Shown here piece by piece: positions 6,428 through 43,808 of a stretch of DNA of 51,114 nucleotides. Under the pieces are notes generated by a model, which was not told where the DNA came from, did not search any database, and saw nothing but the letters and a program-made list of their open reading frames with translations. This DNA comes from Candidatus Fimenecus sp. (lineage in GTDB: Bacteria; Bacillota; Clostridia; Oscillospirales; Acutalibacteraceae). Both the position numbers and the translations under genes were made by a program. Position 1 is the stretch's first letter; every line of letters begins with the position of its first letter. The stretch covers positions 1 to 51,114 of the forward strand of contig JAZQUC010000017.1 of the NCBI GenBank assembly GCA_045631075.1, in the 5' to 3' direction.

Positions 6428-6448
6428 TTTTAATACGCAAACTTTTTC

Positions 6449-6502
6449 GGCTCCCTCTGACGAGGGAGCTGTCATTTTTGCAAAAAAATGACTGAGGGAG
6501 AG
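6449..6502 (+). repeat. GC-rich two-hairpin element (variant copy) just downstream of the LRR gene stop
   Basis: GGCTCCCTC-TGAC-GAGGGAGC, then GTCATTTTT-GCA-AAAAATGAC, then TGAGGGAGAG. Same architecture as 2531-2673 and 20266-20315. Confidence 0.65.
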
Positions 6503-6551
6503 ATAGATAATAAACAGAACTTATTTATTATCATTAAATTTCTTTTACCCC

Positions 6552-6580
6552 TTGCAAAATCTGTTACATAAGTATAAAAT
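6552..6580 (+). promoter_or_regulatory. Candidate ilvD promoter (TTGCAA-17-TAAAAT)
   Basis: TTGCAA 6552-6557 and TAAAAT 6575-6580. AGGAGG RBS lies before ATG 6624. Confidence 0.5.
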
Positions 6581-6623
6581 ATAGTGTATTATTGTAAATC
6601 TACTTTGTGTAGGAGGACTCATT

Positions 6624-8297
6624 ATGAATTTAAGAAGTGAAAATGTATTAAGAGGTGCAGAAAGAGCACCTAACAGAAGCCTTTTCTATGCAATGGGCTA
6701 TACTAAAGAAGAAATTGAAAGACCATTAATTGCAGTTGTTTCTGCACACAGTGAAATTGTTCCTGGTCATATTCATCTTGATAAAATTACAGAGGCTGTA
6801 AAAGCTGGTGTTCGTATGGCAGGTGGTACTCCTGTTATGGTTCCTGCAATCGGCGTTTGTGACGGTATTGCAATGGGACATGTTGGTATGAAATATTCAC
6901 TTGCATCCCGTGAACTTATTGCTGACAGCGTTGAAACAATGATTATGGCTCATGGTTTTGATGGTGCAGTTCTTGTTCCTAACTGTGATAAGATTGTTCC
7001 TGGTATGATTATGGCTGCTGTTCGCCTTAATATCCCTGCAGTTGTATGCTCAGGCGGACCTATGATGTCAGGTCTTGTTGATGGTGTTGAAACATCACTT
7101 TCAAAGATGTTTGAAGCAGTAGGTGCTCGTAAAGCAGGTCTTATTGATGATTGTAAGCTCTGTGAATTTGAAGAAAATGTTTGTCCGGGCTGTGGCTCTT
7201 GTTCAGGTATGTATACTGCTAACTCAATGAACTGTCTTGCAGAAGCAGTTGGTATTGCTCTTCCAGGTAACGGTACAATCCCTGCGGTACATAGCGGTCG
7301 TATTCAGCTTGCAAAGCATGCAGGTATGGCAATTATGAACCTTGTTAAAAATGATATTAAAGCTCGTGATATTATCAACGAAAAGTCAATCCGTAATGCT
7401 CTTGCTTGTGATATGGCTCTTGGTTGCTCATCAAACAGTGTTCTTCATCTTCTTGCTATTGCTAACGAAGCTGAAGTTCCTGTTGACCTTGAATTATTCA
7501 ACGAAATCAGTGCAAAAGTTCCTAACCTTTGTCATTTAGCTCCTGCAGGTGGAACACATATGCACGACCTTAACAATGCAGGTGGTATTCCTGCTGTTCA
7601 GGCTGAACTTGCAAAGAAAGACCTTCTTGATTTGTCACTTATTACTGCAACAGGTAAAACTGTTGGTGAAAATATTGAAAGTGCATATATTAAGAATACT
7701 GATGCTATTCGTCCTATTGATAACCCATACAGCGAAACAGGTGGTATCGCAATTCTTTGGGGCAATATCGCAAAAGACGGTTGCGTAGTAAAGAGAAGTG
7801 CAGTTGCATCTGAAATGCTTGTTCATTCAGGACCTGCAAGAGTATTTGACTCTGAAGACGAAGCTATTGATGCAATTTACAATGGCAAAATCACTCACGG
7901 TGATGTTGTTGTTATTCGTTACGAAGGTCCTATGGGTGGTCCTGGTATGAGAGAAATGCTTAACCCAACATCAGCACTTGCTGGTATGGAACTTGACAAG
8001 ACTGTTGCTCTTATTACTGACGGTCGTTTCAGTGGTGCATCTCGTGGTGCGTCAATTGGTCATGTTTCACCTGAAGCGGCTGCGGGCGGTGAAATTGGTC
8101 TTATTTATGAAGGTGATATTATTGAAATTAATATCCCTGAAAGCAAAATCAATGTTCAGGTTTCAAACGAAGAACTTGATGAAAGAAGAAAAGCTTATGT
8201 TAAGCCTGAACCAAAAGTTAAGTCAGGATGGCTTGCTCGTTATTCAACACTTGTTTCATCTGCAAAAGACGGTGCAGTTATGAAAAAGGTATTTTAA
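6624..8297 (+). CDS. ilvD: Dihydroxy-acid dehydratase
   Basis: 557 aa. The N-terminus [14 protein letters not shown] and the [17 protein letters not shown] and [16 protein letters not shown] motifs are diagnostic. Confidence 0.97.
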
Positions 8298-8300
8298 TCT

Positions 8301-9053
8301 ATGCCAAAGGTTGTAAAAATCAAATCGCAACTGAAAAAAGAAAAAAATAAGGAATTTATAAAAGTTTCTTTTTCCTTTTTGTTTGTATTGTTATTTGCAG
8401 GCATAGGATTCGGAATGCTATTTGCAATTCTCCTGAAAAAGTCCACAGTACATATTTCAATTCCTGTTATATTTATTGTGCTTGGTTTAATTGGATTTGT
8501 TTCGTTTGTTATATTTAAAAAGAAATATAACATTTTGCAATCGGGTGTGCATGGGGAAGAAATTACACTTAAAATTTTACGAAAACTGCCTAAGGATTTT
8601 ACTGTGCTTACTAATCCTGTAATTCTCAATCGCGGTATTACAATGGAGCTTGACTTTGTTGTTGTTAGCAAAAATGGTGTTTTCATTGTTGAAAGCAAAA
8701 ATTATCGTGGAATTGTTTATGGTAAAACATCGAATTCAAACTGGAAACAAGTTAAACATGGTAAAAACGGTAAAACATATGAAAAGTTAGTTTCTAATCC
8801 CGCTAAACAGTCATTCCGTCAGAAACGAAGACTTGAAGAACTGTTCAGAGATTTAAAGATAAGTGCAAATGTTTATTCAATTCTTTATTTTGTTGATGAC
8901 AGAACAGAGTTGAAAATTCAGGATGATGCAAATCTGAATATTGCAATAATCAATAATGAAGATTCTTTACTTGATTTTATAGAGAATACTAAAGGTAGAG
9001 AAAAAGTAAGTTCAGAAGAACTTACAAAAATTATCCGACAATTTAAAAGATAA
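8301..9053 (+). CDS. Membrane-anchored NERD-domain protein
   Basis: 250 aa with two N-terminal TM helices. The NERD-like core is GEEITLKILRKLPKDFTVLTN..LDFVVVSKNGVFIVESKNYRG. Starts 3 nt after the ilvD stop. Confidence 0.75.
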   Translation: MPKVVKIKSQLKKEKNKEFIKVSFSFLFVLLFAGIGFGMLFAILLKKSTVHISIPVIFIVLGLIGFVSFVIFKKKYNILQSGVHGEEITLKILRKLPKDFTVLTNPVILNRGITMELDFVVVSKNGVFIVESKNYRGIVYGKTSNSNWKQVKHGKNGKTYEKLVSNPAKQSFRQKRRLEELFRDLKISANVYSILYFVDDRTELKIQDDANLNIAIINNEDSLLDFIENTKGREKVSSEELTKIIRQFKR

Positions 9054-9095
9054 CATATTGTCTATAATATCAGCATAAAATTAAGTGGTGATATT

Positions 9096-9833
9096 ATGGA
9101 CAATGATTTTTATGAAAGAAGTTCAACAAGTAATAAAAAAAGAGAACAAAAAAAGCAGAATGTAATGACAAAAGTTATTGTTGTTCAGCTTGTTTTATCT
9201 CTTGTGGTGTCAGGAATTATTTTTGTAGTTTGCAAAACAGAAAGTAATCTTTCAAAAAATATTAAATTATTTTATACTGAAATATCAAAAACCGATATCG
9301 TAGTTTCTACTATCATAGATGTATTTAAAAATGTAGCGAAACAAACCTTTGCACCGACTATTATTGAAGAAACTGCATCAGGAGAAACAACAGAAGAATC
9401 AGGGGAAAAGGCAGACTTTTCTCCTGTTTTTTTAACAGTTGATATTACTAATCCAATTGAAAAAGGATATATTTCATCATATTTCGGATATCGTGTAAGT
9501 CCGATTACAAATAAATATTCATTACATAAAGGGATTGATATTCCTGCAGAGGAAAATACAAAAATATATACAATATATGATGGTACAGTCGAAATAGCAG
9601 ATTATAACAGCATAAACGGGAATTACATTGTTATAAAGCATAGCAATACATTTAAAACAACCTACAATCATTGTAATAAATTGTTCTTTAAAAAAGGAGA
9701 TAAGGTAAAAAAAGGAGAGTGTATAGCACTTGTTGGTGCAACAGGTTATGCAACGGGAAATCATTTGCATTTTGAATTGATTATCAATGGCAAATATATA
9801 AATCCCGTATGGGTATTAGACTATGATTTTTAA
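9096..9833 (+). CDS. M23 family metallopeptidase (membrane anchored; SpoIVFA-like position)
   Basis: One TM helix. LytM/M23 motifs are HKGIDI, NGNYIVIKH and GATGYATGNHLHFE. Confidence 0.85.
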   Translation: MDNDFYERSSTSNKKREQKKQNVMTKVIVVQLVLSLVVSGIIFVVCKTESNLSKNIKLFYTEISKTDIVVSTIIDVFKNVAKQTFAPTIIEETASGETTEESGEKADFSPVFLTVDITNPIEKGYISSYFGYRVSPITNKYSLHKGIDIPAEENTKIYTIYDGTVEIADYNSINGNYIVIKHSNTFKTTYNHCNKLFFKKGDKVKKGECIALVGATGYATGNHLHFELIINGKYINPVWVLDYDF

Positions 9834-10428
9834 TATAAAAGGAATCAAGATTGAAATAACATTTCTTTTTGTAGCATTTATTTCATTTGTTATTTTAATT
9901 GATGTATCGTCAAATGTGCTTATAACTGTTTTATCATCAATGTTGCACGAAATTGGTCATTTATTTACAATGATTTCATTGGGTAATAAACCGCAAAAGG
10001 TAAGATTTGAACTTACAGGCATAAATATTATACGAAATCAGGAAATAGCAATCAGCACTAAAAATGAAATATTAATTTCTTTTGGTGGACCTTTCGTAAA
10101 TGCTTTGATGACTCTTGCAAGTAGCGTTATTTTAGTGTTTTTTAATAATGAGGTGTTACTTACCTTTGCTTGTATCAATCTTATATTAATGACTTTCAAT
10201 CTTTTACCGGTTAAAAAACTTGACGGTGGAAGAATATTATATTTTTTATTGTCAACAAGGCTTGATTTTACAGTTTGCTCAAAGGTGTTAAATGTAACAT
10301 CATTATGTTTCATTTTCTTGATATTTGTATGGGGAATATATATATTTGTGGCAAGTCGTTATAATTTCTCTTTGATTATAATTGCCGTTTTTCTTTTTAT
10401 TTCGTACTTTAACGATAATGAATATTGA
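9823..10428 (+). CDS. M50 (site-2 protease) family membrane metalloprotease, SpoIVFB-like but without a CBS domain
   Basis: 201 aa polytopic protein. HEIGH motif (LHEIGHLF) and NLLPVKKLDGGRILY motif. Overlaps the M23 gene by 11 nt. Confidence 0.7.
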   Translation: MIFNIKGIKIEITFLFVAFISFVILIDVSSNVLITVLSSMLHEIGHLFTMISLGNKPQKVRFELTGINIIRNQEIAISTKNEILISFGGPFVNALMTLASSVILVFFNNEVLLTFACINLILMTFNLLPVKKLDGGRILYFLLSTRLDFTVCSKVLNVTSLCFIFLIFVWGIYIFVASRYNFSLIIIAVFLFISYFNDNEY

Positions 10429-10482
10429 AAAAAATTATGAATTATAGTAAAATAATACGAATAACTTTTTGTGAGGTCTGTT

Positions 10483-12327
10483 ATGGTTAAAAAAGAAGTT
10501 GAAAAATTACTGAAAAAAGTTCAAAAACCTGCAAGATATACAGGTGGTGAACTTAATAGTGTTATAAAAAATAAAGAAGATGTAAAACTTCGATATGCTT
10601 TCTGTTTTCCTGATAACTACGAAATCGGTATGTCGCATCTTGGTATGAAAATACTTTATAGTGTTGTAAATGAACGAAACGATGCTTGGTGTGAAAGAGT
10701 TTTTGCACCTTGGGACGATATGGAAGCACTTATGCGTGAAAACGACATTAAGCTTTATGCTCTTGAAAGTGGCGACAGTCTTGATGAGTTTGACTTAATC
10801 GGCTTTTCATTACAATACGAATTATGTTATACAAATGTACTTAATATGCTTGATTTAGGTGGTGTTCCTGTACTTAAAAAGGACAGAACAAGTCTTACGC
10901 CTATTGTTATTGCAGGCGGACCTTGTGCATGTAATGCTGAACCAATGGTTGATTTTGTTGACATTTTCTTACCTGGTGAGGGTGAAGAAGTAACAAATGA
11001 CCTTGTTGATTTGCTTGTTAAACATAAAGAGTTAGGCTCAACAAAGCTCGAGTTCTTAAAGGAAGCTGCACAGATACAGGGTGTTTATGTTCCTGAATTT
11101 TATGATGTTAAATACAATGAAGACGGAACAATTAAATCCATTGATAATACAGAAAATGCTCCTGAAAAAGTAACAAAAAGAATTGTATCAGACCTTGATA
11201 AAGCACATTATCCAAAAGACTTTATTGTTCCGTTTATTGATGTTGTTCAGGACAGAACAGTAGGGGAAGTGTTCCGTGGTTGTACTCGTGGATGCCGTTT
11301 CTGTCAGGCATGCTTTATCACAAGACCAATTCGTGAAAAATCACCTGAAACTATCAATGAACAATGCCGTAGTATTAGTGATTCAACAGGCTATGATGAA
11401 ATTTCTCTTTGCTCACTTTCAACAAGTGACTATACTAAAATTGAAAAACTCATTCCAATGCTTTTTGATTGGGCATTGAAAGAGAATATCAATGTTTCTT
11501 TACCATCTTTGCGAGTTGACAATTTCTCTGACGAGCTTATGGAAGAACTTAAAAAGGTGCGTCGTAGTGGTCTTACATTTGCTCCTGAAGCAGGTACTCA
11601 AAGACTTCGTGATGCTATCAATAAAAATGTTACTGAAGAAGAGGTACTTCGTACTGCACTTAAAGCCTTTGATGGTGGATGGACAAGCGTCAAGCTTTAC
11701 TTTATGATGGGACTTCCAACAGAAACAATGGAAGATATTGCTGGAATTGCTGACCTTGCACAAAAAGTTGTTGATGCGTTCTATCGTAATCCTAATAAAC
11801 CAAAGGGTAAGGGCGTTCAGGTGAGTGTAAGCTGTGCATCATTCGTTCCAAAGCCATTTACGCCTTTCCAGTGGGAACCACAGGACACTATGGAAAGTCT
11901 TACTGAAAAGCAAAAACATCTTCTCAGTAGTACAACAAGCCGTAAAATCACAATCAGCTATCATCAGTCTGAAACATCAGTTCTTGAAGGTGTGTTTGCG
12001 CGTGGTGACCGTCGTCTTGGTGAAGTAATTTATAAGGCTTGGCAAAAGGGCTGTAAGTTTGATGCTTGGGATGAATTCTTTGATTTTTCAAAGTGGTCAG
12101 AAGCGTTTAATGAATGTGGACTTACAACAGAATTTTACGCTAATCGTCGTCGTGAATACAATGAAATTCTTCCTTGGGATGTTATGGATTATGGTATTCG
12201 TAAAGAATTCCTTATTGAAGAAAACAAAAAAGCACACGAGAGCGTAACAACTCCACAATGTAGAATTAAATGTGCTGCTTGTGGTGCAAATAAATTGAAT
12301 GGAGGTAAATGTGATGCCAGAATTTAA
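10483..12327 (+). CDS. B12-binding-domain radical SAM protein (TIGR03960-type)
   Basis: GCTRGCRFCQA (CxxxCxxC) cluster motif, about 614 aa, and characteristic pairing with the next gene. ATG 10483 is preferred over GTG 10471 because of GAGGT spacing. Confidence 0.85.
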   Translation: MVKKEVEKLLKKVQKPARYTGGELNSVIKNKEDVKLRYAFCFPDNYEIGMSHLGMKILYSVVNERNDAWCERVFAPWDDMEALMRENDIKLYALESGDSLDEFDLIGFSLQYELCYTNVLNMLDLGGVPVLKKDRTSLTPIVIAGGPCACNAEPMVDFVDIFLPGEGEEVTNDLVDLLVKHKELGSTKLEFLKEAAQIQGVYVPEFYDVKYNEDGTIKSIDNTENAPEKVTKRIVSDLDKAHYPKDFIVPFIDVVQDRTVGEVFRGCTRGCRFCQACFITRPIREKSPETINEQCRSISDSTGYDEISLCSLSTSDYTKIEKLIPMLFDWALKENINVSLPSLRVDNFSDELMEELKKVRRSGLTFAPEAGTQRLRDAINKNVTEEEVLRTALKAFDGGWTSVKLYFMMGLPTETMEDIAGIADLAQKVVDAFYRNPNKPKGKGVQVSVSCASFVPKPFTPFQWEPQDTMESLTEKQKHLLSSTTSRKITISYHQSETSVLEGVFARGDRRLGEVIYKAWQKGCKFDAWDEFFDFSKWSEAFNECGLTTEFYANRRREYNEILPWDVMDYGIRKEFLIEENKKAHESVTTPQCRIKCAACGANKLNGGKCDARI

Positions 12328-15082: not shown

Positions 15083-15135
15083 TATTGAAAAATGAAATGA
15101 TATCCAATATAATAAGTAAAAAGGAGAGATATTAT

Positions 15136-16389
15136 ATGAAGATTTTCACATCAATTTCTTTAATTGTTTCAGTTCTACTTTCTTTATTAGGTATGGGAAA
15201 AACACCAGATGTAAAAACTTTATCAGAATATAACCATGACAACACATATGAAATGACTATGCTTTCAGTTAATAAACAGGGCTATGTTGTAAATAAAGAT
15301 GGTGAAAAGATAGTTCTTGAAGGTGTAAATATCGGCAATTGGCTTTTGTGGGAAACATGGATGGGCTTTGTTCCTGAATATACTGACAATTGGGCTCATT
15401 ATGATACCCTTGAAGTCTTAATTAAACGATTCGGTGAAGAAAAAACAGCCGAAATCGAAAAGACATTCATGGATAATTTTATTACTGAGGATGATATTGC
15501 ACAAATTGAAAAACTTGGCTTTAATTGCGTTCGTGTGCCGTTTTGGTATCGTAATTTTATGAATGAAGATGGCAGTTGGATTACAATGAATCACGATAAT
15601 AATCCAGGTTTTAAACGAATAGATTGGCTTGTTGAAACTTGTGAAAAATATGGTATATATATTATCTTGGATATGCATGGTGCACCGGGTGGACAGAGTA
15701 AAAATCATAGTACAGGTAAAGCGGGACGAAATGAACTTTACGAAGTAAAGGAAAAAATGGATGCTTGTGTTGAACTTTGGACAGCAATTGCCCAAAGATA
15801 TAAAAATAATGAAATAATTGCTGTATATGACCTTTTGAATGAACCTCAAAATAATGGTGGATATACTGGTGACTATTCGTGGGAGGCAGGTTCACCTGAG
15901 GCTGTTGCACAGACTAACAAAGCATATGATATTCTATATAAAGCAATTAGAGAAATCGATGAAAATCACATAATTTCTTTTGAGGGTATCTGGTCAACAG
16001 ATGTTTTACCAAATCCTGAAGAGCTTGGATACGAAAATGTTATGTATCAGTTACACGTTTACGACAAGGATAGAAATATGATTAACTATCGTGTAAATGA
16101 ACTTCGAAAAATTAGAAAAAACTGGAATGTAGCTGTTTACAATGGCGAATATAACAACGGTGAAAACGAATATTTTGCTCAGATGCTTTATGAATTCTGT
16201 GACATAAATCGTACAAAATGGAATTACAAAACATTTAATGCAGGTAGTCAATGGGGAATTTTTAATCAGAAAGTTTCACGAATTGATATAAAAACTGCAT
16301 CTTATGATGAGATACTTGAATTTGTTAAAAATATTACCCCTACAAGTAAGTTTAATTTTAATGACGTTGAAATGAGCTATTTAGTTTAA
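15136..16389 (+). CDS. Secreted glycoside hydrolase family 5 enzyme
   Basis: Signal-like N-terminus from ATG 15136 (RBS AGGAGA). GFNCVRVPFWY, ILDMHGAPGGQS and the catalytic-acid motif DLLNEP. Confidence 0.85.
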   Translation: MKIFTSISLIVSVLLSLLGMGKTPDVKTLSEYNHDNTYEMTMLSVNKQGYVVNKDGEKIVLEGVNIGNWLLWETWMGFVPEYTDNWAHYDTLEVLIKRFGEEKTAEIEKTFMDNFITEDDIAQIEKLGFNCVRVPFWYRNFMNEDGSWITMNHDNNPGFKRIDWLVETCEKYGIYIILDMHGAPGGQSKNHSTGKAGRNELYEVKEKMDACVELWTAIAQRYKNNEIIAVYDLLNEPQNNGGYTGDYSWEAGSPEAVAQTNKAYDILYKAIREIDENHIISFEGIWSTDVLPNPEELGYENVMYQLHVYDKDRNMINYRVNELRKIRKNWNVAVYNGEYNNGENEYFAQMLYEFCDINRTKWNYKTFNAGSQWGIFNQKVSRIDIKTASYDEILEFVKNITPTSKFNFNDVEMSYLV

Positions 16390-23822: not shown

Positions 23823-23953
23823 CTATACACTTTATGCTAATGTGTTCAATATTTCTTCAATCTATTGTAATATAATAGTAGTAATGGTAAAATGACTTAT
23901 TAAATATTTTAATATTTTATTCATAATTGTGTATTTAAATTGAGGTGAAATCC

Positions 23954-26900
23954 ATGAAGAAACTTTTGTCTGTTATTCTTATAATGACTATGCTTTTCAT
24001 ATCTGTTTCTCAGGGGGTTATTGCTGTTGCAAAAGATTATAAAGACGATACAGCTATATATAAATTTGCGGATGATATATCGAGAATAATTCGTGAAAAC
24101 AGTATTGAAAATGAGTCGGAAGGCACTGCTTCATCACTTGATGATATGTTGTATAGAATTGAATATTTTTTCAATAAGACACAGTCTTCTTCGATTTATG
24201 ATAGTTTATATGAAGACGCATTTGAAACAAAAAGACTTATTGTTAAGGCAGATAAACTTAATGATTACAAAGGCGCTATCGACTGTGTTAGTGGCTACAA
24301 TGATTTGTATGTTTTACAGTATGATAGTCAGTTGTCAGCAAAAAAAGCGTATGAATATTATCTTAAATCATCTTCAATTGAATATGTTGAGCCTGATTCT
24401 ATATATGTTTCACAAGAAGAGGAAGATTTGGGCGTAGTCATTCCTGATGATGAGGCTAATGAATATGATGAATTTACCGCAGCGGCTATTCAGTGGATGA
24501 CAGATAAAATCGGATTTACAGATATAAAAGAAAAACTTGCAGAAAGAATTGAAGATGATTATGTTCTTGTTGCAGTTATTGATAGTGGTGTTGATACTGA
24601 CCACGACCTTCTCAAAAACAGACTTGTTGAAAGTAATGTGAATTTGAGTGGTTCGGGTATTTTAAATTCTTCAGAGGATGATTATGGTCACGGAACTCAT
24701 GTTGCTGGTATTGTTGCAAGTTGCTCATTGGATAATGTAAAAATTAAACCTTATAAAGTTCTTAATAATGAGGGTAAGTGTTCTTTAATAACCATTGCGA
24801 CTGCTGTTGATATGGCGGTATCAGATGGCGCAGATGTAATTAATATAAGTATTTCAGGTAAAGTGGAAAGTCCAACCTTGACAACTGCAATTGATAATGC
24901 TGTGGCAAACGATGTTAATGTTGTTGTTGCAGCAGGTAACAACAAACTTGACCTTACAAAAAATTATGTTTCTCCTGCTTGTGTTGAGTCAGCAATTACA
25001 GTCAGTGCAACTGATGCAAATGATAATTTAGCATCATTTTCAAATTATAATGGAACTATAGATATTGCTGCACCTGGTGTTGATATTGAAAGTAGCTATC
25101 TCAATAACACATACATTCAGTTGAGTGGTACATCTATGGCAACTCCACAGGTTTCTGCAGGACTTGCAATTCTTCAATCAATATCAAAGGATATTTCAGC
25201 GTCTGCATGTGAAGCAAAGATTGAAGAATTTGCTATTAAAGCTAAAGGCGAAGACGGGAAAAATTATTTTGGTGCTGGTATATTGTTCTTGAAGTATATT
25301 CTTGATGAAAAGCCAACAACTGCCGACCCTGTTTTCAGTGTCCCAAGTGGTACATTTGAACAGACATTTACAGTAGATATTACTTGTCCTGATGAAGATG
25401 CAAAAATATATTATATTATTTATGATACGGATTTAAAGTCTGTAAATTGGTTTGATAGTTTTATTTATAGCGGACCGATTACTGTTTCAATTGATACTAA
25501 GATTTCAGCATTTGCTTGGTTGGATGGATGTAAACCAAGCTCTATTGTAACCGTTGAATACGATAGAATCGGACAGACTGAGGATGACTATTACGAAATC
25601 AATTCTCTTGGTTATATAACAAATTACTATGGTTCCGAAGTGAATCTTTTTGTTCCTGATGTGATAAAGGGAATTGTTGTTAAGGGTATCGGTATAGAAG
25701 CATTCAGCAATAATAGGAGAACTGAAAGCATCATTCTTCCAGACACTTGTAAAAAGATTAATGCTTCAGCATTTAATAATTGTTTATCATTAAAGTCTGT
25801 TTCTGGTAATGGAATTGAAGATGTTTCTATGCATGCATTTGAAAACTCTTCTGTTGAAGCAATCGATTTTCCTAATATGACAACTGTCGGTATGTATGCT
25901 TTTTCAGGATGTTCAGAACTTAATCAGATTACCCTTTCAAATGTAGAAACTATTGGTACTTATGCATTTACAGGTACAACAAGTCTTGGTCCTGTTATCT
26001 GTGATAATCTTACCACGCTTGGGACAGAGGCGTTTGCACAATCAGGTGTATCTCTTTTCAGTGCGCCAAAATTAACCTCAATAGGCAATAATGCTTTTGT
26101 TGATTGTACAGACCTTGTTTCAGTCTCTGTTCCGTTACTTACTGTTCTTGAACTTGGTGTGTTTAAGAATTGTTCTTCACTGGTTGAAGTGAATTTTGAT
26201 TCTGTTGTTGAAATCAAAGCAAATGCATTAAGAAATACTGCAATTGATAAATTTGTAGGAATGAATGTTGAAAAAGTAGGTAACTATGCTTTTGCTGATA
26301 ATCCTCATCTTGTTGCTTGTGCGTTGATGAAAAACACATCAACAGGTAGTTATGTTTTTCAAAATTGTTCTTCCTTAAAAATCGTTATGCTTCCTGTTTT
26401 AGAAGAATTAAATAGTAATGCATTTTCTAATTGTTCATCCCTTTTGAATTTATATTTGCCAAATGTAAAAACAGTCGCAAAGGACGCGTTTAAGAATTCA
26501 TCGGTTGAATTTTTAATGTTCGATAAAGTAAAGACTATCAAGAGTTTACCTAATACCTTGAAAGGTATCTTGTTGCCTGGAACAACCACATCCATTACAT
26601 CAGTACCGACAAGTGACTTTGTTGTTTATGGCTTTGAAGACACATATGCTCATGAGTTTGCTTTAACTAATAACAAAAAATTTGTGAAGGTTCCTTCTGT
26701 ATACGAAGATTCAGCACAGGTAACAGTTGGTGACAAATATATTGTTATATATGCTTTTGGATTTAATTGTGAGTATCAATGGTACCGAAATGATATTATT
26801 TCCAATGTTGGCGGAACACCTATTGAAGGTGCAACAAACTTCTATTATGAACCATCTCAGGATGATGATTCTGCAGCATTTTATTGTGTTGTAACTAGTC

Positions 26901-27343
26901 GAAATGGTGAAAATGTAAGTTCTAGTACATCGGTTCCGATTGTTAACGCTCCTGAATACAGAAAAGCTGACTATTCACAATATAACAAACTTCAACAAGA
27001 GATTTATTCGTTGAATCGTATTTTATATGATGAGGAACTTCTTCGTCAGCTTGATGAGTTGTTGAAAGTTGATATGACAGGTTTGAAACTTTCAGAACAA
27101 CATGTTCTTGATAACTATGTTCAACAGTTAGGAGAAATGTTAGCACTTGTTAAGGAGTCATTTGTGTTGGGCGACCTTAATTCTGATGGTTTTATTTCAG
27201 CTATTGATGCGCGAATTGTGTTGTTAGCTACAGTTAATCTTCAATCACTTGTCGGCAGACAAATCTATTCAGCTGATATGGATGGTAATGGTGAAATTAC
27301 AGCCGTTGATGCAAGAATGATTTTACAAAAAACAGTTGAATAA
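23954..27343 (+). CDS. Multidomain secreted S8 (subtilisin-family) serine protease with BspA-type LRR region, Ig-like module and C-terminal dockerin
   Basis: Signal peptide from ATG 23954 (RBS GAGGTG). I9-like propeptide. Catalytic triad contexts VAVIDSGVD, HGTHVAG and GTSMATP. LRR motifs (AF..C..L..V). The tail is GDLNSDGFISAIDA ... ADMDGNGEITAVDA. Confidence 0.88.
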   Translation: MKKLLSVILIMTMLFISVSQGVIAVAKDYKDDTAIYKFADDISRIIRENSIENESEGTASSLDDMLYRIEYFFNKTQSSSIYDSLYEDAFETKRLIVKADKLNDYKGAIDCVSGYNDLYVLQYDSQLSAKKAYEYYLKSSSIEYVEPDSIYVSQEEEDLGVVIPDDEANEYDEFTAAAIQWMTDKIGFTDIKEKLAERIEDDYVLVAVIDSGVDTDHDLLKNRLVESNVNLSGSGILNSSEDDYGHGTHVAGIVASCSLDNVKIKPYKVLNNEGKCSLITIATAVDMAVSDGADVINISISGKVESPTLTTAIDNAVANDVNVVVAAGNNKLDLTKNYVSPACVESAITVSATDANDNLASFSNYNGTIDIAAPGVDIESSYLNNTYIQLSGTSMATPQVSAGLAILQSISKDISASACEAKIEEFAIKAKGEDGKNYFGAGILFLKYILDEKPTTADPVFSVPSGTFEQTFTVDITCPDEDAKIYYIIYDTDLKSVNWFDSFIYSGPITVSIDTKISAFAWLDGCKPSSIVTVEYDRIGQTEDDYYEINSLGYITNYYGSEVNLFVPDVIKGIVVKGIGIEAFSNNRRTESIILPDTCKKINASAFNNCLSLKSVSGNGIEDVSMHAFENSSVEAIDFPNMTTVGMYAFSGCSELNQITLSNVETIGTYAFTGTTSLGPVICDNLTTLGTEAFAQSGVSLFSAPKLTSIGNNAFVDCTDLVSVSVPLLTVLELGVFKNCSSLVEVNFDSVVEIKANALRNTAIDKFVGMNVEKVGNYAFADNPHLVACALMKNTSTGSYVFQNCSSLKIVMLPVLEELNSNAFSNCSSLLNLYLPNVKTVAKDAFKNSSVEFLMFDKVKTIKSLPNTLKGILLPGTTTSITSVPTSDFVVYGFEDTYAHEFALTNNKKFVKVPSVYEDSAQVTVGDKYIVIYAFGFNCEYQWYRNDIISNVGGTPIEGATNFYYEPSQDDDSAAFYCVVTSRNGENVSSSTSVPIVNAPEYRKADYSQYNKLQQEIYSLNRILYDEELLRQLDELLKVDMTGLKLSEQHVLDNYVQQLGEMLALVKESFVLGDLNSDGFISAIDARIVLLATVNLQSLVGRQIYSADMDGNGEITAVDARMILQKTVE
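27166..27340 (+). other. Type I dockerin module (two Ca-binding F-hand repeats) within the S8 protease
   Basis: DLNSDGFISAIDARIVL and DMDGNGEITAVDARMIL duplicated segments about 30 aa apart. Confidence 0.85.
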
Positions 27344-31823: not shown

Positions 31824-33170
31824 CTATTTTGTCAAAACTCCGCCATCGCTGTACAAAAGAAGTAAAATATTATTTTCCTCACCGCTTTCGCAATCTATAT
31901 ATACAAGCAATTCTTGTCTTGAATCTGTCTTACAATGAAATTCATAACAAAGCTGTTCTGTTTTCCATTCTGTAGGTATAACACAAATTTGTGAATCAAT
32001 AACTGTGAGATGATTGTTTAACTTATTCTCTGCGTCTTTAAGCGACAACTTTCTATTAAGTTTTTGTCTTTCAGTATGATTTGAAATGTATCCTGAAGCA
32101 TCAAAGGATATAATATTACCAGTTTCAAGGCATACGCTGACTTTAATAAGGTCAGGATACATTGTTACATCGTCTTCTTCAAATGCAAAATTTATAGTAC
32201 ATATTCCGTCATCAGTAAAATAATAGCTTTCTTCCATATCGTCATATCCAATTTTTTCAAGGAAATCATCAGCATATCTTATTGCATCTTCATATTTTAC
32301 TTTCATTTCACCTGAAAACTCTGAACTCAACATATAACAAGGCTTACCGCCTTGCTTTGTTATTGCAACAGTGTATTTTTCTCCTTTAAAAACATAACAG
32401 GGAATATCACCGTCTTCTTCGTGCGAAAAAGAAAGAATATCTTTTTCCATATTACAAACAGTCTTTGCAATTTTCAAAGCATCCTCTTTACTGATTTCTT
32501 TAAGACCTTCTAAAAACTTTGGTTTACTTTGAGTAAGATGGTCAGAAAAAGGACCGTCATAAATAAGTGTTGGAATATCTGTCATAGCTTGTTCTGTATC
32601 ATCAAAGCTATTACCAATTGACTGTATTTCAGTGCTTGTATTTAATAGAGTAGAAGATGAATCATCAAAGAGAAAGTTTCCGTTCTGCATATCGTGGCAC
32701 ATTTGATTTACTTTATCGTTCAGATTTCTACAAAGGGAATTTAGTTGTTTAAGTTGTTCTCGTTCTTTATCGGTCAACTGTTCGCCTAATGCACTTTTTC
32801 GTTCAAGAGACATTACAAATTCTCCGATTTGTGATAAAAATTTGTAAGTGTTACTTATTGTGTTTTCACCTGTTGGTAAAATTGAAAGATTATTTTTGGC
32901 ACCTGATGCCTCTCGCCATAATTCAGCAGAAAGTTTTGATAGCATTGTGGGAGTGCTGACATAAATAGTTTTTTCAAGATTTGTCGAAATGTTGTTAAGG
33001 TTTTCATCCAAAGCTATCAGTGCCATTTGTCTTAGTATCATTGTTTCTTTTTCATATCTGTTTGCTTTTACAGTTTGAACAATTGAAAATATACCTAAAA
33101 CAACAATCAGTGTAGTTGAATATAGTATAATTCGTGCTTTGACGCGTGTTGAAATGTTGATTTTTTCCAT
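31824..33170 (-). CDS. ypeB: Germination protein YpeB-like (N-terminal TM helix, PepSY-type C-terminal repeats)
   Basis: About 448 aa from MEKINIST (RBS AAGGAG). Single TM helix. The conserved region LSKLSAELWREASGAKNNLSILP and overall architecture resemble YpeB. Confidence 0.6.
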   Translation of the reverse strand: MEKINISTRVKARIILYSTTLIVVLGIFSIVQTVKANRYEKETMILRQMALIALDENLNNISTNLEKTIYVSTPTMLSKLSAELWREASGAKNNLSILPTGENTISNTYKFLSQIGEFVMSLERKSALGEQLTDKEREQLKQLNSLCRNLNDKVNQMCHDMQNGNFLFDDSSSTLLNTSTEIQSIGNSFDDTEQAMTDIPTLIYDGPFSDHLTQSKPKFLEGLKEISKEDALKIAKTVCNMEKDILSFSHEEDGDIPCYVFKGEKYTVAITKQGGKPCYMLSSEFSGEMKVKYEDAIRYADDFLEKIGYDDMEESYYFTDDGICTINFAFEEDDVTMYPDLIKVSVCLETGNIISFDASGYISNHTERQKLNRKLSLKDAENKLNNHLTVIDSQICVIPTEWKTEQLCYEFHCKTDSRQELLVYIDCESGEENNILLLLYSDGGVLTK

Positions 33171-33299
33171 TAAAATGAACTCCTTTAAACATTTGGAAAT
33201 ATTATTCACAAAAAATTTAAATTTATGCCTAAAAATATTCAATTTTTATTTGCCAAATCATAGTTTTTGTAGTATAATTACTATGTTTAAGTATGTAAA

Positions 33300-35627: not shown

Positions 35628-36107
35628 ATGAAACTTGAAGAAAAGGTTGTAAAACTGCTTCGTGAAAAAAATCTTGTGCTGTCTTGTGCTGAATCATGCA
35701 CTGGTGGTCTTATAGCAAAGAGAATTACAGATGTCAGTGGTTCATCTGCAGTTTTTAATTGTGGAATAGTCAGTTACAGTAATGAGATTAAAGAAAAAGT
35801 TCTTAATGTTAAGAATGATACGTTAAAAGAGTTTGGTGCAGTCAGTGAACAAACTGTTCGTGAAATGGTGAACGGAGTTCTCACTGTTTCAGGTGCTGGT
35901 ATTGCAGTTTCAGTATCAGGGATTGCAGGACCAAATTCTGATAATACCGATAAACCTGTCGGTTTAATTTATTTAGCAGTTTCCAACGGTGAAACAACCG
36001 TTGTTAAGAAATTGAATAATCAGTTCACAACTGATGTTAGAAACAGTAACAGAATAAGTGCTTCAGATGAAGCTCTTAAAATGATTATAGAAATGATAGG
36101 AGAATAA
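35628..36107 (+). CDS. Stand-alone CinA C-terminal domain protein (nicotinamide-nucleotide amidase PncC type)
   Basis: 159 aa. LSCAESCTGGLIA..IT...GSS.VF.CG.V.YSNE.K and SGIAGP motifs. No N-terminal MoCF-like domain. Confidence 0.88.
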   Translation: MKLEEKVVKLLREKNLVLSCAESCTGGLIAKRITDVSGSSAVFNCGIVSYSNEIKEKVLNVKNDTLKEFGAVSEQTVREMVNGVLTVSGAGIAVSVSGIAGPNSDNTDKPVGLIYLAVSNGETTVVKKLNNQFTTDVRNSNRISASDEALKMIIEMIGE

Positions 36108-36109
36108 CT

Positions 36110-37015
36110 ATGGAAAAGAAAAATAATGCTGTTGTAAAAAAAGTCATTATTGCAGTTGTAGTTGCTATATTACTTATTTCTGCAATATTTTTGACAAAAT
36201 TCTTTATTGACCAGAAGAACGAACCATCAAATGGTGATGATGTTACAAATTCATCACAGGTACAAACAACTGAACCTGTTGCAAAACCTGACTATTCAGA
36301 ATATGTTGAACAGAATCCTGAAACAGTAGGTTGGATTTCAATTCCTGGTACACAAATTAACTTCCCTGTTGTTCAGTCAGTAGATAATGAATATTATCTT
36401 TCACACACATTTGACCATAAGTCAGATAAACGTGGTGCAATTTATATGGACTATCGTAACAATGCTGTTGACCTTGACGCAAATACTATTATTTATGGTC
36501 ACAACGATTACAAAGCTGGTAGTGTTTTCTCAGAAATTGCTTACTACGATGATATTGAATATTATAAAGAACACCCAATTATTGAGTTTAATACACTTGA
36601 AAGCTATTATCAGTGGAAAATCTATGCTGTGTTTATCACAAATCAGCAGGCATATGATGATAATGGATATATTTTCAACTTCATTTGGCCACAGATGGAA
36701 GGACCAAACTTCAAAGGTTATGTTGAAGAATTGAATAAGCGTACACTTTATTACACAGGCGTTGACATCAAGGATGGTGACAGAATTCTTACATTGTCAT
36801 CATGTGCAAGAAATCTTGATACAGCTGGAAATCGTGCGAAAACAAGTATCGTTGTTGTTGCCCGTGCAGTAAGACCAGGTGAAGATGCAACAGTTGATGT
36901 ATCAAGAGCATATGTAAATGAAAATCCAAAATATCCACAGCTTTATTACAACATAAAGGGTATTGCAAATCCATATAAGAATGATAAAAAGTGGTATCCT
37001 GTGGTGATTGACTAA
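36110..37015 (+). CDS. srtB: Class B sortase
   Basis: N-terminal TM anchor. GWISIPGTQINFPVVQ..DNEYYL.H, TIIYGHN (catalytic His), LTLSSC (catalytic Cys) and VVVARAVR (Arg). Confidence 0.85.
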   Translation: MEKKNNAVVKKVIIAVVVAILLISAIFLTKFFIDQKNEPSNGDDVTNSSQVQTTEPVAKPDYSEYVEQNPETVGWISIPGTQINFPVVQSVDNEYYLSHTFDHKSDKRGAIYMDYRNNAVDLDANTIIYGHNDYKAGSVFSEIAYYDDIEYYKEHPIIEFNTLESYYQWKIYAVFITNQQAYDDNGYIFNFIWPQMEGPNFKGYVEELNKRTLYYTGVDIKDGDRILTLSSCARNLDTAGNRAKTSIVVVARAVRPGEDATVDVSRAYVNENPKYPQLYYNIKGIANPYKNDKKWYPVVID

Positions 37016-38289
37016 TGGATAATAAAGAAAATAATTCAATGCTTTCTTTTGATAAACTTCGTGAGGGCTTAGGTATAGAAGGCGAATTACCGCAGGTTAA
37101 CGAACCTGAAAGACCTAAAGTTGTTGAAGATGTGAAATCGGTTTCAAAAAGTGATACACCAACAGGTGGTAAATCTGTTATTGAAAACGGTATTAAGTTT
37201 ATTGATATTACTGAACAATATACATCTTTTAATCAACCGACCGAAAAAGCAGAAGAAATTCCTGTAAAACAAGAGGAGAAAGTGGAACAGGTTATAGCAT
37301 CTGTTCCTGAAACACCTAAAAAGCGTGTTAAAACATTTGATGAAATATTTTCTGATTTTTTTGCAGTATTTCTTCCTGTTAAGAATGATAGCAGTAAAGA
37401 AAAAATCAGAAAAATCATAATGGATTTTTCAATTATTCTTATAATTGCTTGTTTTATAGGTTTTGTTCAACTTTTTATAGAACGAAGTGAACAATCATCT
37501 TTGGGCTCAGTTAATAACGCTGAATTAACTGACAAATTAAGTATTAATTCCTATAATGAGTCATGGAATGAAATTCTTTCTGATAGTTCATCAGTTTCTT
37601 TTCCTCAAGGTATGAAATCTCAATTTTCATATTTTTATAGTTCCAATAATGATATGGCAGGTTGGATTAAAATCAGCAACACCAATCTTGATGCTCAGGT
37701 TGTTCAAGGTGATAACAACGAATACTATAAAAATAAGGATTTCTATGGAAATGATAACAAATCAGGATGTCCGTATATTGATTACAAAAACGAAACATAT
37801 GAACTTGATGATAATACAATAATTTATGGACAAAATTCCAACAATAATCTTATGTTTTCTGTTCTTGAACAGTATAAGACTATTGAAGGATATAAAAATT
37901 CACCAATTATTGAATTCAGTACCTTATATAAATCATATACATTCAAGGTTTTTGCGGTGTTTATTGCGACTGACAGCCCTGTAAGTGATAATGGTTTTAG
38001 TTATACTGTTACTGATTTTATGTCTGACAATAAATTCGGTGAATTTATCAATGAAGTTAAAGTCAGAAGTCTTATTAATACGGATGTATCAGTACAGACT
38101 GATGATAAAATTTTGACTCTTGTTACTCCAACTCGTGAATTTGATAATGCACGACTTGTTGTAATGGGAAGAATGGTTCGTGAAAACGAATCACCTAATG
38201 TGAATGTGGATGGTGCAACTATTAATACATCACCAAAATATCCACAGGTTTGGTATGATAAAAAAGGTGAAAGCAATCCTTTTGCATAA
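37015..38289 (+). CDS. Sortase-B-like paralogue lacking catalytic His and Cys, with a long N-terminal cytoplasmic extension
   Basis: Start overlaps the srtB stop (TAATG). It aligns with SrtB as AGWIKISNTNLDAQVVQGDNNEYY, but has TIIYGQN (His to Gln) and LTLVTPT (Cys to Pro/Thr). Arg is retained (VVMGRMVR). Confidence 0.7.
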   Translation: MDNKENNSMLSFDKLREGLGIEGELPQVNEPERPKVVEDVKSVSKSDTPTGGKSVIENGIKFIDITEQYTSFNQPTEKAEEIPVKQEEKVEQVIASVPETPKKRVKTFDEIFSDFFAVFLPVKNDSSKEKIRKIIMDFSIILIIACFIGFVQLFIERSEQSSLGSVNNAELTDKLSINSYNESWNEILSDSSSVSFPQGMKSQFSYFYSSNNDMAGWIKISNTNLDAQVVQGDNNEYYKNKDFYGNDNKSGCPYIDYKNETYELDDNTIIYGQNSNNNLMFSVLEQYKTIEGYKNSPIIEFSTLYKSYTFKVFAVFIATDSPVSDNGFSYTVTDFMSDNKFGEFINEVKVRSLINTDVSVQTDDKILTLVTPTREFDNARLVVMGRMVRENESPNVNVDGATINTSPKYPQVWYDKKGESNPFA

Positions 38290-38333
38290 TAATTTAGCAG
38301 GTAAAAAGTAGGGAAAAGAGAGGTTATTTGAAT

Positions 38334-40403
38334 ATGAGAACAAAAGTGTTATCACTTAATGTTGACAGAAGTATGTCTTTTGCTCGTTTTCAGGCTCGTG
38401 TTGAAAGTAGTATAAACAACTATACTGATGATTGCGTCTTCCAGCAATTTGAAGATATCAGAGAAATGTTTGTTGCTTTACAGAGTGCACTTGAAAACGA
38501 TGAATTAATTCTCACTGCTGTTGATGTTAAAAATTATTTAAAATTTAAAAATGCGTTAATTCAGGCTTTTGGCACAGAGGTTGTATATAATTCAACTGTG
38601 TCAAAACGAGTTGAAAAATTAAGCCTTGATGATAAAAAGAAGCAAGCCTTTTCCGCTTTCCCTGAACCTGCAACTGTGTTTGCATCTGATGATGGACTTT
38701 ATTCAGGTTTTGCAATGGCTAACGGAAATCAGCATCTTATTCTTTTACCTATAGACAATTATAGAATTGATGAAATTTTAAGAAATGGTGTAATTCCTTA
38801 TCTTAATGAACAGTTAATGGCTAAATATGATGACATTGTTTTATCAACTGAAAAGCCTCCATTTTTCGATAAGGTTTCATTTGCTGTAAACAGTATTCTT
38901 GAATGTGATTCATTGGTTGCTGTTAACGGTACAAGAAATGCAGAGGTTTTAAAGAGCTGTGGCGATGAAGTTGTAGGTTTTGATAAAGCATTTGTATTTA
39001 CACCTTATGTTGAGGATAAAGGTAAGATTAATCCTACTGAATATACTGCACAGCTTGCAAGAGTAAGCCTTGATTTATCATCTGCAAAACTTGGTGCTTG
39101 CATCAGTGATATTTATACATCAAATGATGCTAAATATATTTGTATTGCAGTTTCTGATGGTGATTCAGCACTTGTAAGAAAACTTTATATGTCAGATAAT
39201 GAAACTGAACATGAGTTTGTTGAAAGTGCAGCAGTTGAGCTCATTGAACTTGTTGGTGAAAAGGTATCTGGTAAGAGAAGTGTTGGAATTGAAATTTCCG
39301 ATTCACAGGATAATGTTATTACAGATGATGATAAGAAAATTGCAAAGAAAAAGCCTCTTGCCATCCTTGCAATTGTTATAGGTCTTGTATTCATAGTTTG
39401 TGCAATCTTTGCTTTTATTTTCCAGCAGAATGTAAAAGACGATAATAAAGGTGATACACCAACTGAATCAACAACTAATCCTATAATTTCAACTACTGAA
39501 CCTACAACAGTTGGTTCTACAGCATATGATGAAAATATGATGAAACTTTCTGATTATCTTGTTTCAGCAATTATGAGTATGGATGAGGCAACAATTCAGA
39601 ATAATATTTCAGAGTATAGTAAAGATGTACCGGAGTTTATTACTGTTAATGGTAAACAAATTCCTGCAAAACAGGCACTTGCTCGTCTTGTTACAGCAGA
39701 AATTTCTAACGGATATAACTTTGATGTTGTAAAGGCATATACAGTTGCTACATATACTTGTCTTAAAGTAATCGGCAATGATTTTGTTCTTGATAATGTA
39801 AGAATTTCACAGGCAGCAAATGGTGTTGTTACTCGTGCTGTTGAAGATGTTTTTGGTGAATATCTTACATATAATAATTTCCTTGCTGTTCCTTTGTTCC
39901 ATAATCTTACAGCAGTAAATACTCTTGATATGTCAGCAAAATTACCATATCTTAAGAGCGTAAAATTAGAACGTCATCAGGATGTTAATGTTAGAACTTA
40001 CCAATCAAGCAAGGTTTATTCTCTTGATGAAATGAAAGCAATCTTGCTTAAAAACAACAGTTCTGTTGTTCTTTCTGAAAACCCTGCTGAATGGGTAGTA
40101 ATTAAAGAGCACGATGCTTCTGTTTCAGCAGATGTAGGTAATGTTAAATCTGTTGTTTTCAATGGTACTGAAATGACAGGTATTGAATTTAAAATGAAGG
40201 TAATGGGTGATGATAAGTTAGCGTCAATCTGTTTCCAGATTGTTTATAATGCAGAAACATCATCATTTATCGTTACAACATATGGTCAAGGATACGGAAT
40301 TGGTATGGGTCAGATTGGTGCAAAATATCTTTCAGTAAATGACCATGACTATACAGCAATTCTCACAAAGTATTATGAGGGAACAACAGTTACAAAGGGG
40401 TAA
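38334..40403 (+). CDS. Bitopic membrane protein: ~330-aa cytoplasmic domain, one TM helix, extracellular SpoIID/LytB-like domain
   Basis: TM helix PLAILAIVIGLVFIVCAIFAFIF. The C-terminal end YGQGYGIGMGQIGAKYLS....YT.IL.KYYEGTTV matches the SpoIID/LytB terminal motif. LARLVTAEIS resembles the catalytic-Glu block. Confidence 0.5.
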   Translation: MRTKVLSLNVDRSMSFARFQARVESSINNYTDDCVFQQFEDIREMFVALQSALENDELILTAVDVKNYLKFKNALIQAFGTEVVYNSTVSKRVEKLSLDDKKKQAFSAFPEPATVFASDDGLYSGFAMANGNQHLILLPIDNYRIDEILRNGVIPYLNEQLMAKYDDIVLSTEKPPFFDKVSFAVNSILECDSLVAVNGTRNAEVLKSCGDEVVGFDKAFVFTPYVEDKGKINPTEYTAQLARVSLDLSSAKLGACISDIYTSNDAKYICIAVSDGDSALVRKLYMSDNETEHEFVESAAVELIELVGEKVSGKRSVGIEISDSQDNVITDDDKKIAKKKPLAILAIVIGLVFIVCAIFAFIFQQNVKDDNKGDTPTESTTNPIISTTEPTTVGSTAYDENMMKLSDYLVSAIMSMDEATIQNNISEYSKDVPEFITVNGKQIPAKQALARLVTAEISNGYNFDVVKAYTVATYTCLKVIGNDFVLDNVRISQAANGVVTRAVEDVFGEYLTYNNFLAVPLFHNLTAVNTLDMSAKLPYLKSVKLERHQDVNVRTYQSSKVYSLDEMKAILLKNNSSVVLSENPAEWVVIKEHDASVSADVGNVKSVVFNGTEMTGIEFKMKVMGDDKLASICFQIVYNAETSSFIVTTYGQGYGIGMGQIGAKYLSVNDHDYTAILTKYYEGTTVTKG

Positions 40404-43770: not shown

Positions 43771-43775
43771 TTTTA

Positions 43776-43808
43776 TAACAGAGTGCTTATGTGCTCTGTT
43801 ATTTTTTT
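43776..43808 (+). terminator. Terminator after rnpB
   Basis: AACAGAG..CTCTGTT stem followed by ATTTTTTT. Confidence 0.65.

Follow-up and report, generated by a model that had tools for sequence, protein, structure and literature searches.

A predicted pseudo-sortase retained beside a class B sortase in a Candidatus Fimenecus gene cluster with CinA and SpoIID-like neighbours

Introduction

What is a sortase fold kept for once its catalytic residues are gone? The question is raised by a 51,114-nucleotide (nt) stretch of DNA from Candidatus Fimenecus sp. (Clostridia; Oscillospirales; Acutalibacteraceae; GenBank assembly GCA_045631075.1, contig JAZQUC010000017.1, positions 1 to 51,114 of the forward strand), referred to here as the window, in which two sortase-like genes overlap and the second lacks both the histidine and the cysteine of the active site. 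We call the two open reading frames (ORFs) and their products A and B. A preliminary description of the window had suggested that B is a dead but maintained paralogue serving as a regulatory, scaffolding or substrate-recognition partner. We report that B is, on sequence and predicted structure, a genuine pseudo-sortase that has kept the class B fold and lost the Cys/His mechanism, and we weigh what such a protein may do beside its CinA, sortase and SpoIID-like neighbours.

Results

ORF A (36110..37015, plus strand) encodes a membrane-anchored class B sortase of 301 amino acids (aa), and ORF B (37015..38289, plus strand) encodes the 424-aa B-copy. The two are joined by a TAATG stop/start overlap (37013..37017, plus strand), in which the TAA of A (37013-37015) and the ATG of B (37015-37017) share base 37015, as previously described. 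A Shine-Dalgarno-like GGTGA site lies 8 nt 5' of the ATG of B. The proteins are paralogues, with 33% identity over about 300 aa (E = 8e-49).

ORF B matched the Pfam Sortase family but scored 144.1 bits against TIGR03064 (class B sortase), below the curated cut-off of 153.75. Its sortase-fold ectodomain (aa 206-390; 37630..38184, plus strand) was modelled by AlphaFold2 with a predicted local distance difference test score (pLDDT) of 80-94, and Foldseek gave TM-scores of 0.8-0.92 to SrtB crystal structures (normalised to the target), in agreement with the earlier statement that B follows the whole sortase fold. The motifs in which class B sortases carry the catalytic His (following strand β4) and the catalytic Cys (TLxTC) read TIIYGQ(273)N and LTLVTP(372)T. 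A HMMER alignment to Staphylococcus aureus SrtB (1qwz; PDB phmmer E = 7e-33) placed Q273 on His130 and P372 on Cys223. The substitutions reported in the preliminary description are thus genuine: comparison with SrtB restored neither residue, leaving Gln273 (37831-37833) and Pro372 (38128-38130) at the two positions, and no substitute Cys or His was conserved. The catalytic Arg of class B sortases is anchored at the start of strand β8 (PMC5118464). In B this position is R380 (NARLVV; strand 379-387 in the model; 38152-38154). The preliminary description was therefore right that an Arg is present but had placed it in GRMVR, which lies at the far end of β8.

Because the Cys nucleophile and the His general base are both lost, B is predicted to be incapable of sortase transpeptidation by the Cys/His mechanism, and because it lacks the defining catalytic features and falls below the curated cut-off it should not be filed as a sortase enzyme. 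It combines the features expected of a pseudoenzyme: homology to an enzyme family, missing catalytic residues, purifying selection and conservation across species.

To place B among its relatives, we took the best 120 of 352 homologues (cluster representatives) from a search of 5.8 billion proteins. All were full length (404-465 aa); 63 carried the His, 64 carried the Cys and 56 lacked both. These 56 dead representatives have intact ORFs of 405-465 aa from many independent assemblies, and show ten residue pairs at the His and Cys positions (QP, NT, QT, PP, PT, PS, PD, SP, YS and NS), with P, Q, S, N or Y at position 273 and P, T, S or D at position 372. The R380 position is not conserved among them either, reading K, Q or I in 22 of the 56. 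A neighbour-joining tree with the A family as root placed the dead proteins in a single clade with zero intact members inside, and the sister group was a small clade of intact B proteins. A single clade fits one loss of catalysis followed by long persistence. Pairwise identity within it falls to 48% overall and 54% in the sortase domain, a diversity equal to that of the active set.

Selection was estimated as the ratio of nonsynonymous to synonymous substitution rates (dN/dS) between the window and its closest genome relative, a goat-caecum Clostridia metagenome-assembled genome (MAG; L001), at a dS of about 0.5. The ratio was 0.123 for the whole of B, 0.055 for its sortase domain and 0.19 for its tail, and 0.084 for A, 0.108 for cinA and 0.108 for the SpoIID-like gene. 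The frame of B is open over all 424 codons, as had been stated, and close relatives neither lack nor frameshift the second gene: the tandem arrangement is found in 81 of 90 loci and all 56 dead ORFs are intact. Together with the monophyly of the clade and the tight junction in tandem loci, these results uphold the earlier view that B is being maintained and is not decaying.

One orthologue within the active clade (P0097, on a 2.5-kb contig) is alone in having His replaced by Gln with the Cys kept (TVIYGQHM ... TCSYEF), which could be an independent early step to inactivation or a sequencing error.

The pattern of constraint differs between active and dead B proteins. Ten positions around the old active site never vary in active B but do so in dead B (R249, Y250, H273, H274, M275, D277, G278, N283, N329 and C372), and L239, which is Leu in 61 of 64 active orthologues, also varies in the dead clade. 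The equivalents of positions 239 and 249 in Bacillus anthracis SrtB are L106 and R116, which have been tested there as ligand-contact residues (PMC11987632). Loss of conservation at these canonical contacts argues against substrate recognition through the canonical groove. Eight other positions are invariant only in the dead clade (S337, I345, N346, K349, N355, D357, S359 and T362), in helix 338-351 and the loop before strand β7. By this comparison, constraint on B has shifted rather than vanished, and we infer that the patch at aa 337-362 and the conserved motifs of the B tail are candidate interfaces. The dead clade offers no alternative conserved Cys or His; C252 reaches only about 90% conservation and also occurs in active B. 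An alternative nucleophile of this kind in B was accordingly ruled out.

B carries a cytoplasmic N-terminal extension (aa 1-133; 37015..37413, plus strand) that is mostly disordered, with low pLDDT apart from short elements. Conserved short motifs lie at aa 10-20, at aa 57-68 and in a juxtamembrane stretch, KKRVKTFDEIFSDFFAVFLPVKNDSSKEKIRK. Residues 1-161 had no match outside this protein family among 1.84 billion representative proteins (phmmer), and Pfam gave no match to the extension. The same type of tail is present in all active B orthologues and in the A orthologues of some deeper lineages, and the extension therefore predates inactivation. The extension of ~135 aa noted earlier is thus there, but it is ancestral and was not gained with the loss of catalysis. 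It is followed by a transmembrane (TM) helix at aa about 134-158 (37414..37488, plus strand; helix 127-161 in the model), oriented N-in/C-out. Within this helix, Cys146 is present in 56 of 56 dead and 62 of 64 active orthologues.

At the other end of B, a C-terminal extension (38185..38286, plus strand) carries a family-wide N-x-[ST]-PKYPQ-x-WYD...NP[FY] motif, which recurs in A at aa 270-288. Both paralogues (B at aa 404-422) and almost all orthologues of both families have such an extension of ~35-50 aa after the last sortase strand, with the consensus [NS]PKYPQ-x-WYD...NP[YF], and it is modelled with high confidence. The [NS]PKY element resembles the class B sorting motifs NPKTG and SPKTG with the cleavable Thr-Gly replaced, and the extension could be a built-in pseudo-substrate or lid.

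ORF A matched both Pfam Sortase and TIGR03064, at 156.1 bits against the cut-off of 153.75. Its AlphaFold2 model had a mean pLDDT of 89 and its Foldseek matches were SrtB structures. The motifs TIIYGH(131)N and LTLSSC(232) supply His131 (36500-36502) and Cys232 (36803-36805), and both residues were invariant in 120 of 120 A homologues. At the start of β8 (KTSIVVV; strand 245-253 in the model) A has Ser246 (36845-36847) in place of the canonical Arg, and so does not have the full canonical triad. The preliminary description had credited A with a complete TIIYGHN, LTLSSC and ARAVR set; the His and Cys stand, but ARAVR lies at the far end of β8. At this column the A homologues have R (66), S (41), G (13) or Y (1), counts that include an added S. 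aureus SrtB row. Four residues before Ser246, Arg242 (YRA motif; 36833-36835) is near-invariant, and Arg234 (C-x-R) is invariant, as is the C-x-R-x-x-D motif as a whole. Either Arg242 or Arg234 might compensate for the missing residue. As aligned, A is a sortase whose nucleophile and base are kept and whose third catalytic residue has moved or been lost.

We fetched 90 related loci and compared their gene order. Two sortase genes stood in tandem in 81 of them; seven loci were cut by a contig end, and only the two most distant had a single sortase. Of the 81 tandem loci, 73 have an A-B junction gap of -4, -1 or 0 nt. A conserved block of thiI, cinA, A, B, a gene for a SpoIID-like membrane protein of roughly 700 aa and galE was found throughout the related loci, and a nifS-like gene lay 5' of the block wherever upstream genes were read. 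In the window, cinA (35628..36107, plus strand) lies directly 5' of the sortase pair and encodes a 159-aa protein with the PncC-type domain only (Pfam CinA PF02464, E = 7e-52).

The related loci also suggest an order of events. Both copies carry His, Cys and Arg in more deeply branching relatives, namely an Oscillospiraceae MAG, Candidatus Fimenecus and a species that turns up in dozens of human-gut metagenome contigs. One locus (L090) has Ser at the Arg position of A and an intact B; in five others (L087, L089, L001, L007 and L008), B is dead and A has Ser or Gly at that position. Because L090 combines Ser in A with an intact B, A lost its canonical Arg before B lost His and Cys. From this comparison, the ancestor of B was the second gene of an old tandem in which both sortases were intact, and catalysis was lost once in the lineage of the window. 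No rate shift was found at the active site of A after the inactivation of B.

A split active site, with B giving its Arg in trans to A, was considered and ruled out: the Arg of B is K, Q or I in 22 of the 56 dead proteins, and the change from Arg to Ser in A predates the inactivation of B, His and Cys being intact in the B of L090.

Directly downstream of the pair, a gene at 38328..40403 (plus strand) encodes a 691-aa bitopic membrane protein, whose N-domain is cytoplasmic and whose C-terminal, SpoIID/LytB-like ectodomain follows a TM helix at about aa 345-367. Proteins of this type are present in 83 of the 90 related loci. It scored 65.9 bits against TIGR02669 (cut-off 83.3) and matched Clostridioides difficile SpoIID (5i1t) with E = 6e-11. 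It does not qualify as SpoIID itself (TIGR02870), scoring 74.1 bits against a cut-off of 234.75 with only the C-terminal half of the model aligned; SpoIID is a protein of about 340 aa with an N-terminal TM helix, whereas the 691-aa protein has an extra cytoplasmic domain of 340 aa. This N-domain had no family match in Pfam, and its match to the N-terminal part of a fusion protein described below (L006) was weak (E = 0.17) and was not relied on. The GHGVGMSQWGA motif of C. difficile SpoIID reads GYGIGMGQIGA in the 691-aa protein, and for this reason its SpoIID-like domain may also be catalytically degenerate. In the subclade of dead B proteins with the SP residue pair (L089, L010), the SpoIID-like protein is shortened to about 390 aa and ends just past the TM helix.

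The products of these neighbouring genes are fused in other Clostridia. In L006 (4522-7218), one 898-aa protein comprises an N-domain, CinA/PncC, an acidic linker, a TM helix and a B-type sortase domain with N, D and K at the three catalytic positions and an SPKYPQVWYD tail. With this protein as query, we found 175 homologues, and the top 120 examined were all CinA - TM - sortase-fold proteins of 669-1269 aa, publicly annotated as CinA or nicotinamide-nucleotide amidohydrolase. Some have added PASTA domains. Both His and Cys were absent from 79 and present in 41 of the 120, a ratio biased by a query that is itself a dead fusion and not to be read as an unbiased frequency. The commonest dead states were NPR, NDK, NPE, KDK and QTR, and the set shows predicted catalytic loss to be recurrent among these fusions. 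A SpoIID-like C-terminus was present in 27 of the 79 dead fusions and in 0 of the 41 intact ones. A profile of the B motif before the TM helix (aa 98-135) matched the fusions just before their own TM helix (E = 1e-7 to 1e-8). All fusion loci that were read lie directly after nifS-like and thiI genes, like the sortase pair in the window.

Several loci combine intact and dead domains. In L091, the first gene (6001-8892) encodes full CinA, a TM helix and an intact class B sortase (TIGR03064, 164 bits), and the second (8912-11368) a cytoplasmic N-domain, a TM helix, a dead sortase-like domain and SpoIID/LytB (118.7 bits, above the cut-off). The dead domain of the second protein has His replaced by Lys and Cys by Tyr and matches B. 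anthracis SrtB with E = 3.6e-16. L093 (6001-9411 and 9417-12059) has the same layout with PASTA domains added. In L092 (6001-9489), CinA, a TM helix, a dead sortase and SpoIID/LytB form one chain, from a protein cluster of 263 member sequences, and a separate intact sortase with a B-like tail is also encoded. Because these parts are fused elsewhere, by Rosetta-stone logic the cinA, A, B and SpoIID-like genes of the window are the unfused form of one module. Within that module, the degenerate sortase fold is the part that recurrently shares a chain with CinA on the cytoplasmic side and with SpoIID/LytB-like or PASTA domains on the outer side. The window has the features by which we define the module: nifS-like and thiI genes upstream, CinA, at least one sortase-fold domain behind a TM helix, and a SpoIID/LytB-like ectodomain, whether encoded separately or fused.

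The pair lies within a ~10-kb co-directional array of nifS-like, thiI, cinA, A, B, SpoIID-like, galE, lemA, TPM and HAD genes. The best sigma-70-like promoter match (TTGCCA-17-TATAAT; 33250..33278, plus strand) is located 5' of the nifS-like and thiI genes, and the first strong terminator-like hairpin 3' of the array (43775..43802, plus strand) follows the HAD gene. These consensus matches bracket the array and suggest one long transcription unit. Divergent from the nifS-like/thiI/cinA/sortase array lies a gene for YpeB, the partner of SleB in spore germination (31824-33242, minus strand); ypeB recurs upstream on the other strand in the window, L006, L087, L089, L090 and L091.

Elsewhere, the window has genes for three secreted products: a subtilase of 1132 aa that carries BspA-type leucine-rich repeats and ends in a dockerin (23945-27343), a BspA-type leucine-rich repeat protein of 1080 aa (3185-6427) and a GH5 cellulase (15085-16389). 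The ends of the two large repeat proteins carry no sortase sorting signal, one having a Cys-rich tail and the other the dockerin. The organism appears to use cohesin-dockerin complexes, fitting a rumen or gut Oscillospirales origin.

Discussion

On balance, comparative genomics leads us to favour a structural role for B: with no catalytic part of its own, it would be the scaffold or adaptor of a complex that crosses the membrane and includes the SpoIID-like protein, CinA and probably sortase A. B spans the membrane once, the N-terminus lying in the cytoplasm and the C-terminus outside. Its ectodomain would dock the SpoIID/LytB-like ectodomain of the downstream protein, and probably also sortase A, and its conserved tail would make contact with proteins inside the cell, for example the separate CinA whose gene lies two places upstream. 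Any remaining need of the module for a transpeptidase would be supplied by sortase A. We infer a physical association of B with the products of its neighbours from gene order and fusions, and sortase A is probably not its only partner, the dead domain being fused to CinA and/or SpoIID/LytB elsewhere. Of the roles offered in the preliminary description, a scaffold or partner is thus the best reading of B, but recognition through the canonical groove is argued against by the loss of its ligand contacts. The process served may be cell-wall remodelling, possibly linked to sporulation or germination; this is a guess prompted by the peptidoglycan-related domains of the module and the adjacent ypeB in spore-formers.

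A broader version of the scaffold reading is more tentative. CinA belongs to the NMN (nicotinamide mononucleotide) deamidase and ADP-ribose pyrophosphatase family. Clostridia may possess a trans-envelope module in which a sortase fold, often dead, is the structural core that links cytoplasmic CinA to outer domains that act on or bind peptidoglycan (SpoIID/LytB-like, PASTA). The window would then hold its fully unfused form, with CinA, one live sortase, one dead sortase and a SpoIID-like protein.

Several points weigh against the scaffold reading. In sister lineages B is catalytically intact in an identical gene context, so that context alone requires no dead domain. The transpeptidase activity of A is assumed, since its canonical Arg is absent, and no ORF in the window ends in a sorting signal, so that no sortase substrate for A was found there. 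The excess of dead fusions carries the bias of its query. Finally, the NDK-type fusions L006 and L094 have no SpoIID-like ectodomain and no intact sortase within 6 kb, so the dead domain must there have a role that needs neither.

A possible but rather doubtful alternative is that B is a regulatory or substrate-presenting subunit of A, with a groove that binds sorting signals or lipid II for A or gates A, and that CinA and the SpoIID-like protein are incidental. The tight and conserved stop-start junction would fit a dedicated partner of A, as would the retention of His and Cys in 120 of 120 A homologues and the co-occurrence of intact and degenerate sortase domains in L091, L092 and L093. A precedent exists in SipA, a dead signal-peptidase homologue essential for pilus assembly by a class B sortase (PMC4049620). 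However, conservation is lost in the very groove that such a subunit would use (L239, R249 and N329 are variable and the Arg becomes K, Q or I), A shows no matching change in constraint after B was inactivated, and dead CinA-sortase fusions occur in loci without an intact sortase (L006, L094). Independence from A is a feature of another proposal, which we regard as unlikely, that the B ectodomain is a sensor of an extracytoplasmic ligand, such as a peptidoglycan stem peptide or lipid II, that signals through the TM helix and tail to CinA. The wide occurrence of CinA, TM helix and (pseudo)sortase in one chain, in some cases with PASTA domains, which are known peptidoglycan-binding modules, is consistent with signalling of this kind, and so are the conserved, family-private short motifs of the B tail and the invariant Cys146 in the membrane. 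Against this, the window encodes its CinA as a protein of its own (159 aa), and the dead clade has not conserved the residues of the canonical ligand contacts.

Two further explanations turn on the dead domain itself. Catalysis by non-canonical residues, for example a Thr or Ser nucleophile beside position 372, is very improbable. The window protein does keep Arg380 and has a Thr on either side of position 372 (Thr371 and Thr373), and the domain is under strong purifying selection, but positions 372 (P, T, S, D) and 273 (P, Q, S, N, Y) vary across the clade, the second His (274) is lost too, the Arg column changes to K, Q or I, and no other Cys or His is conserved. Decay of B to a pseudogene, or an error of assembly or sequencing, would agree with the loss of two of three catalytic residues, but intact ORFs of 405-465 aa in all 56 dead representatives from many independent assemblies, a dN/dS of 0.12 at a dS of about 0.5, and conserved synteny and junction reduce the probability of this explanation to almost nothing.

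The consequences extend beyond this locus. Sortases are treated as enzymes, drug targets and protein-engineering tools, and a large conserved set without the nucleophile shows a non-catalytic use of the fold. The public names "class B sortase" and "competence/damage-inducible protein A" mislead surface-proteome predictions in gut and rumen Clostridia. The recurrent CinA and SpoIID/LytB-like fusions predict specific protein-protein contacts, and they connect CinA, a protein of debated physiological role, with the envelope of spore-forming anaerobes. Among these, the human-gut species that recurs in dozens of metagenome contigs offers the two-active-copy version of the pair. Were the trans-envelope module to prove real, the sortase fold would have a further use besides catalysis, that of adaptor or sensor in the envelope, and CinA would gain a concrete envelope-linked context.

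Comparison with known systems

Full-text literature searches on pseudo-sortases, inactive sortases, sortases without the catalytic cysteine, and the combination of CinA with sortase gave no relevant result. The earlier remark that no characterised pair of active and pseudo-sortase was known to its author agrees with this, no published pseudo-sortase having been found. B and its relatives would thus represent a pseudoenzyme branch of the class B sortases inside an undescribed CinA / sortase-fold / SpoIID-LytB module, with a function suggested by comparative genomics alone.

The closest characterised enzymes are the SrtB proteins of S. aureus, B. anthracis and C. difficile (MEROPS C60B, TIGR03064), with which A and B share the fold, including its class-B-specific elements, and the N-terminal membrane anchor. 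Identity to solved SrtB structures is 27-34%, and A keeps the His and Cys as in SrtB. Unlike these enzymes, B lacks His and Cys and falls below the TIGR03064 cut-off, and A lacks the canonical Arg. The C-terminal extension of ~35-50 aa with PKYPQ-x-WYD in A and B and the 133-aa cytoplasmic tail of B are absent from characterised SrtBs, and no iron-uptake or pilin genes adjoin the window pair, in contrast to theirs. Tandem class C sortase genes of pilus islands likewise place several paralogues in one operon, but theirs are all intact and have adjacent pilin substrates.

Dead envelope enzymes are known from other folds. The degenerate LytM factors EnvC, NlpD and SpoIIQ are dead paralogues of peptidoglycan hydrolases that activate amidases or scaffold a sporulation channel. 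Like B, they are envelope pseudoenzymes derived from the fold of a cell-wall enzyme, with an activator or scaffold role and, in some cases, a place in sporulation; their fold and chemistry are unrelated and the likeness is one of analogy only.

Within the sortase field, the second sortase-like gene of C. difficile 630 is a true pseudogene: its frame is interrupted by a stop codon ahead of the Cys, and other lineages lack the gene (PMC4155245). It too is a non-functional paralogue beside a functional SrtB-type system, whereas B is intact, conserved and under selection. In the pilus operons of Streptococcus pyogenes, SipA/LepA, a signal-peptidase homologue without the catalytic Ser and Lys, is needed for pilus polymerisation by a class B sortase (PMC4049620). 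SipA resembles B in being a catalytically dead envelope-enzyme paralogue whose gene adjoins that of a class B sortase and which has been kept for a non-catalytic role. It differs in being a homologue of signal peptidase and not of sortase, in lying in a pilus cluster with pilin substrates, and in having a role shown experimentally, where that proposed for B comes from comparative genomics. By analogy, SipA is the nearest functional counterpart to B in the sortase field.

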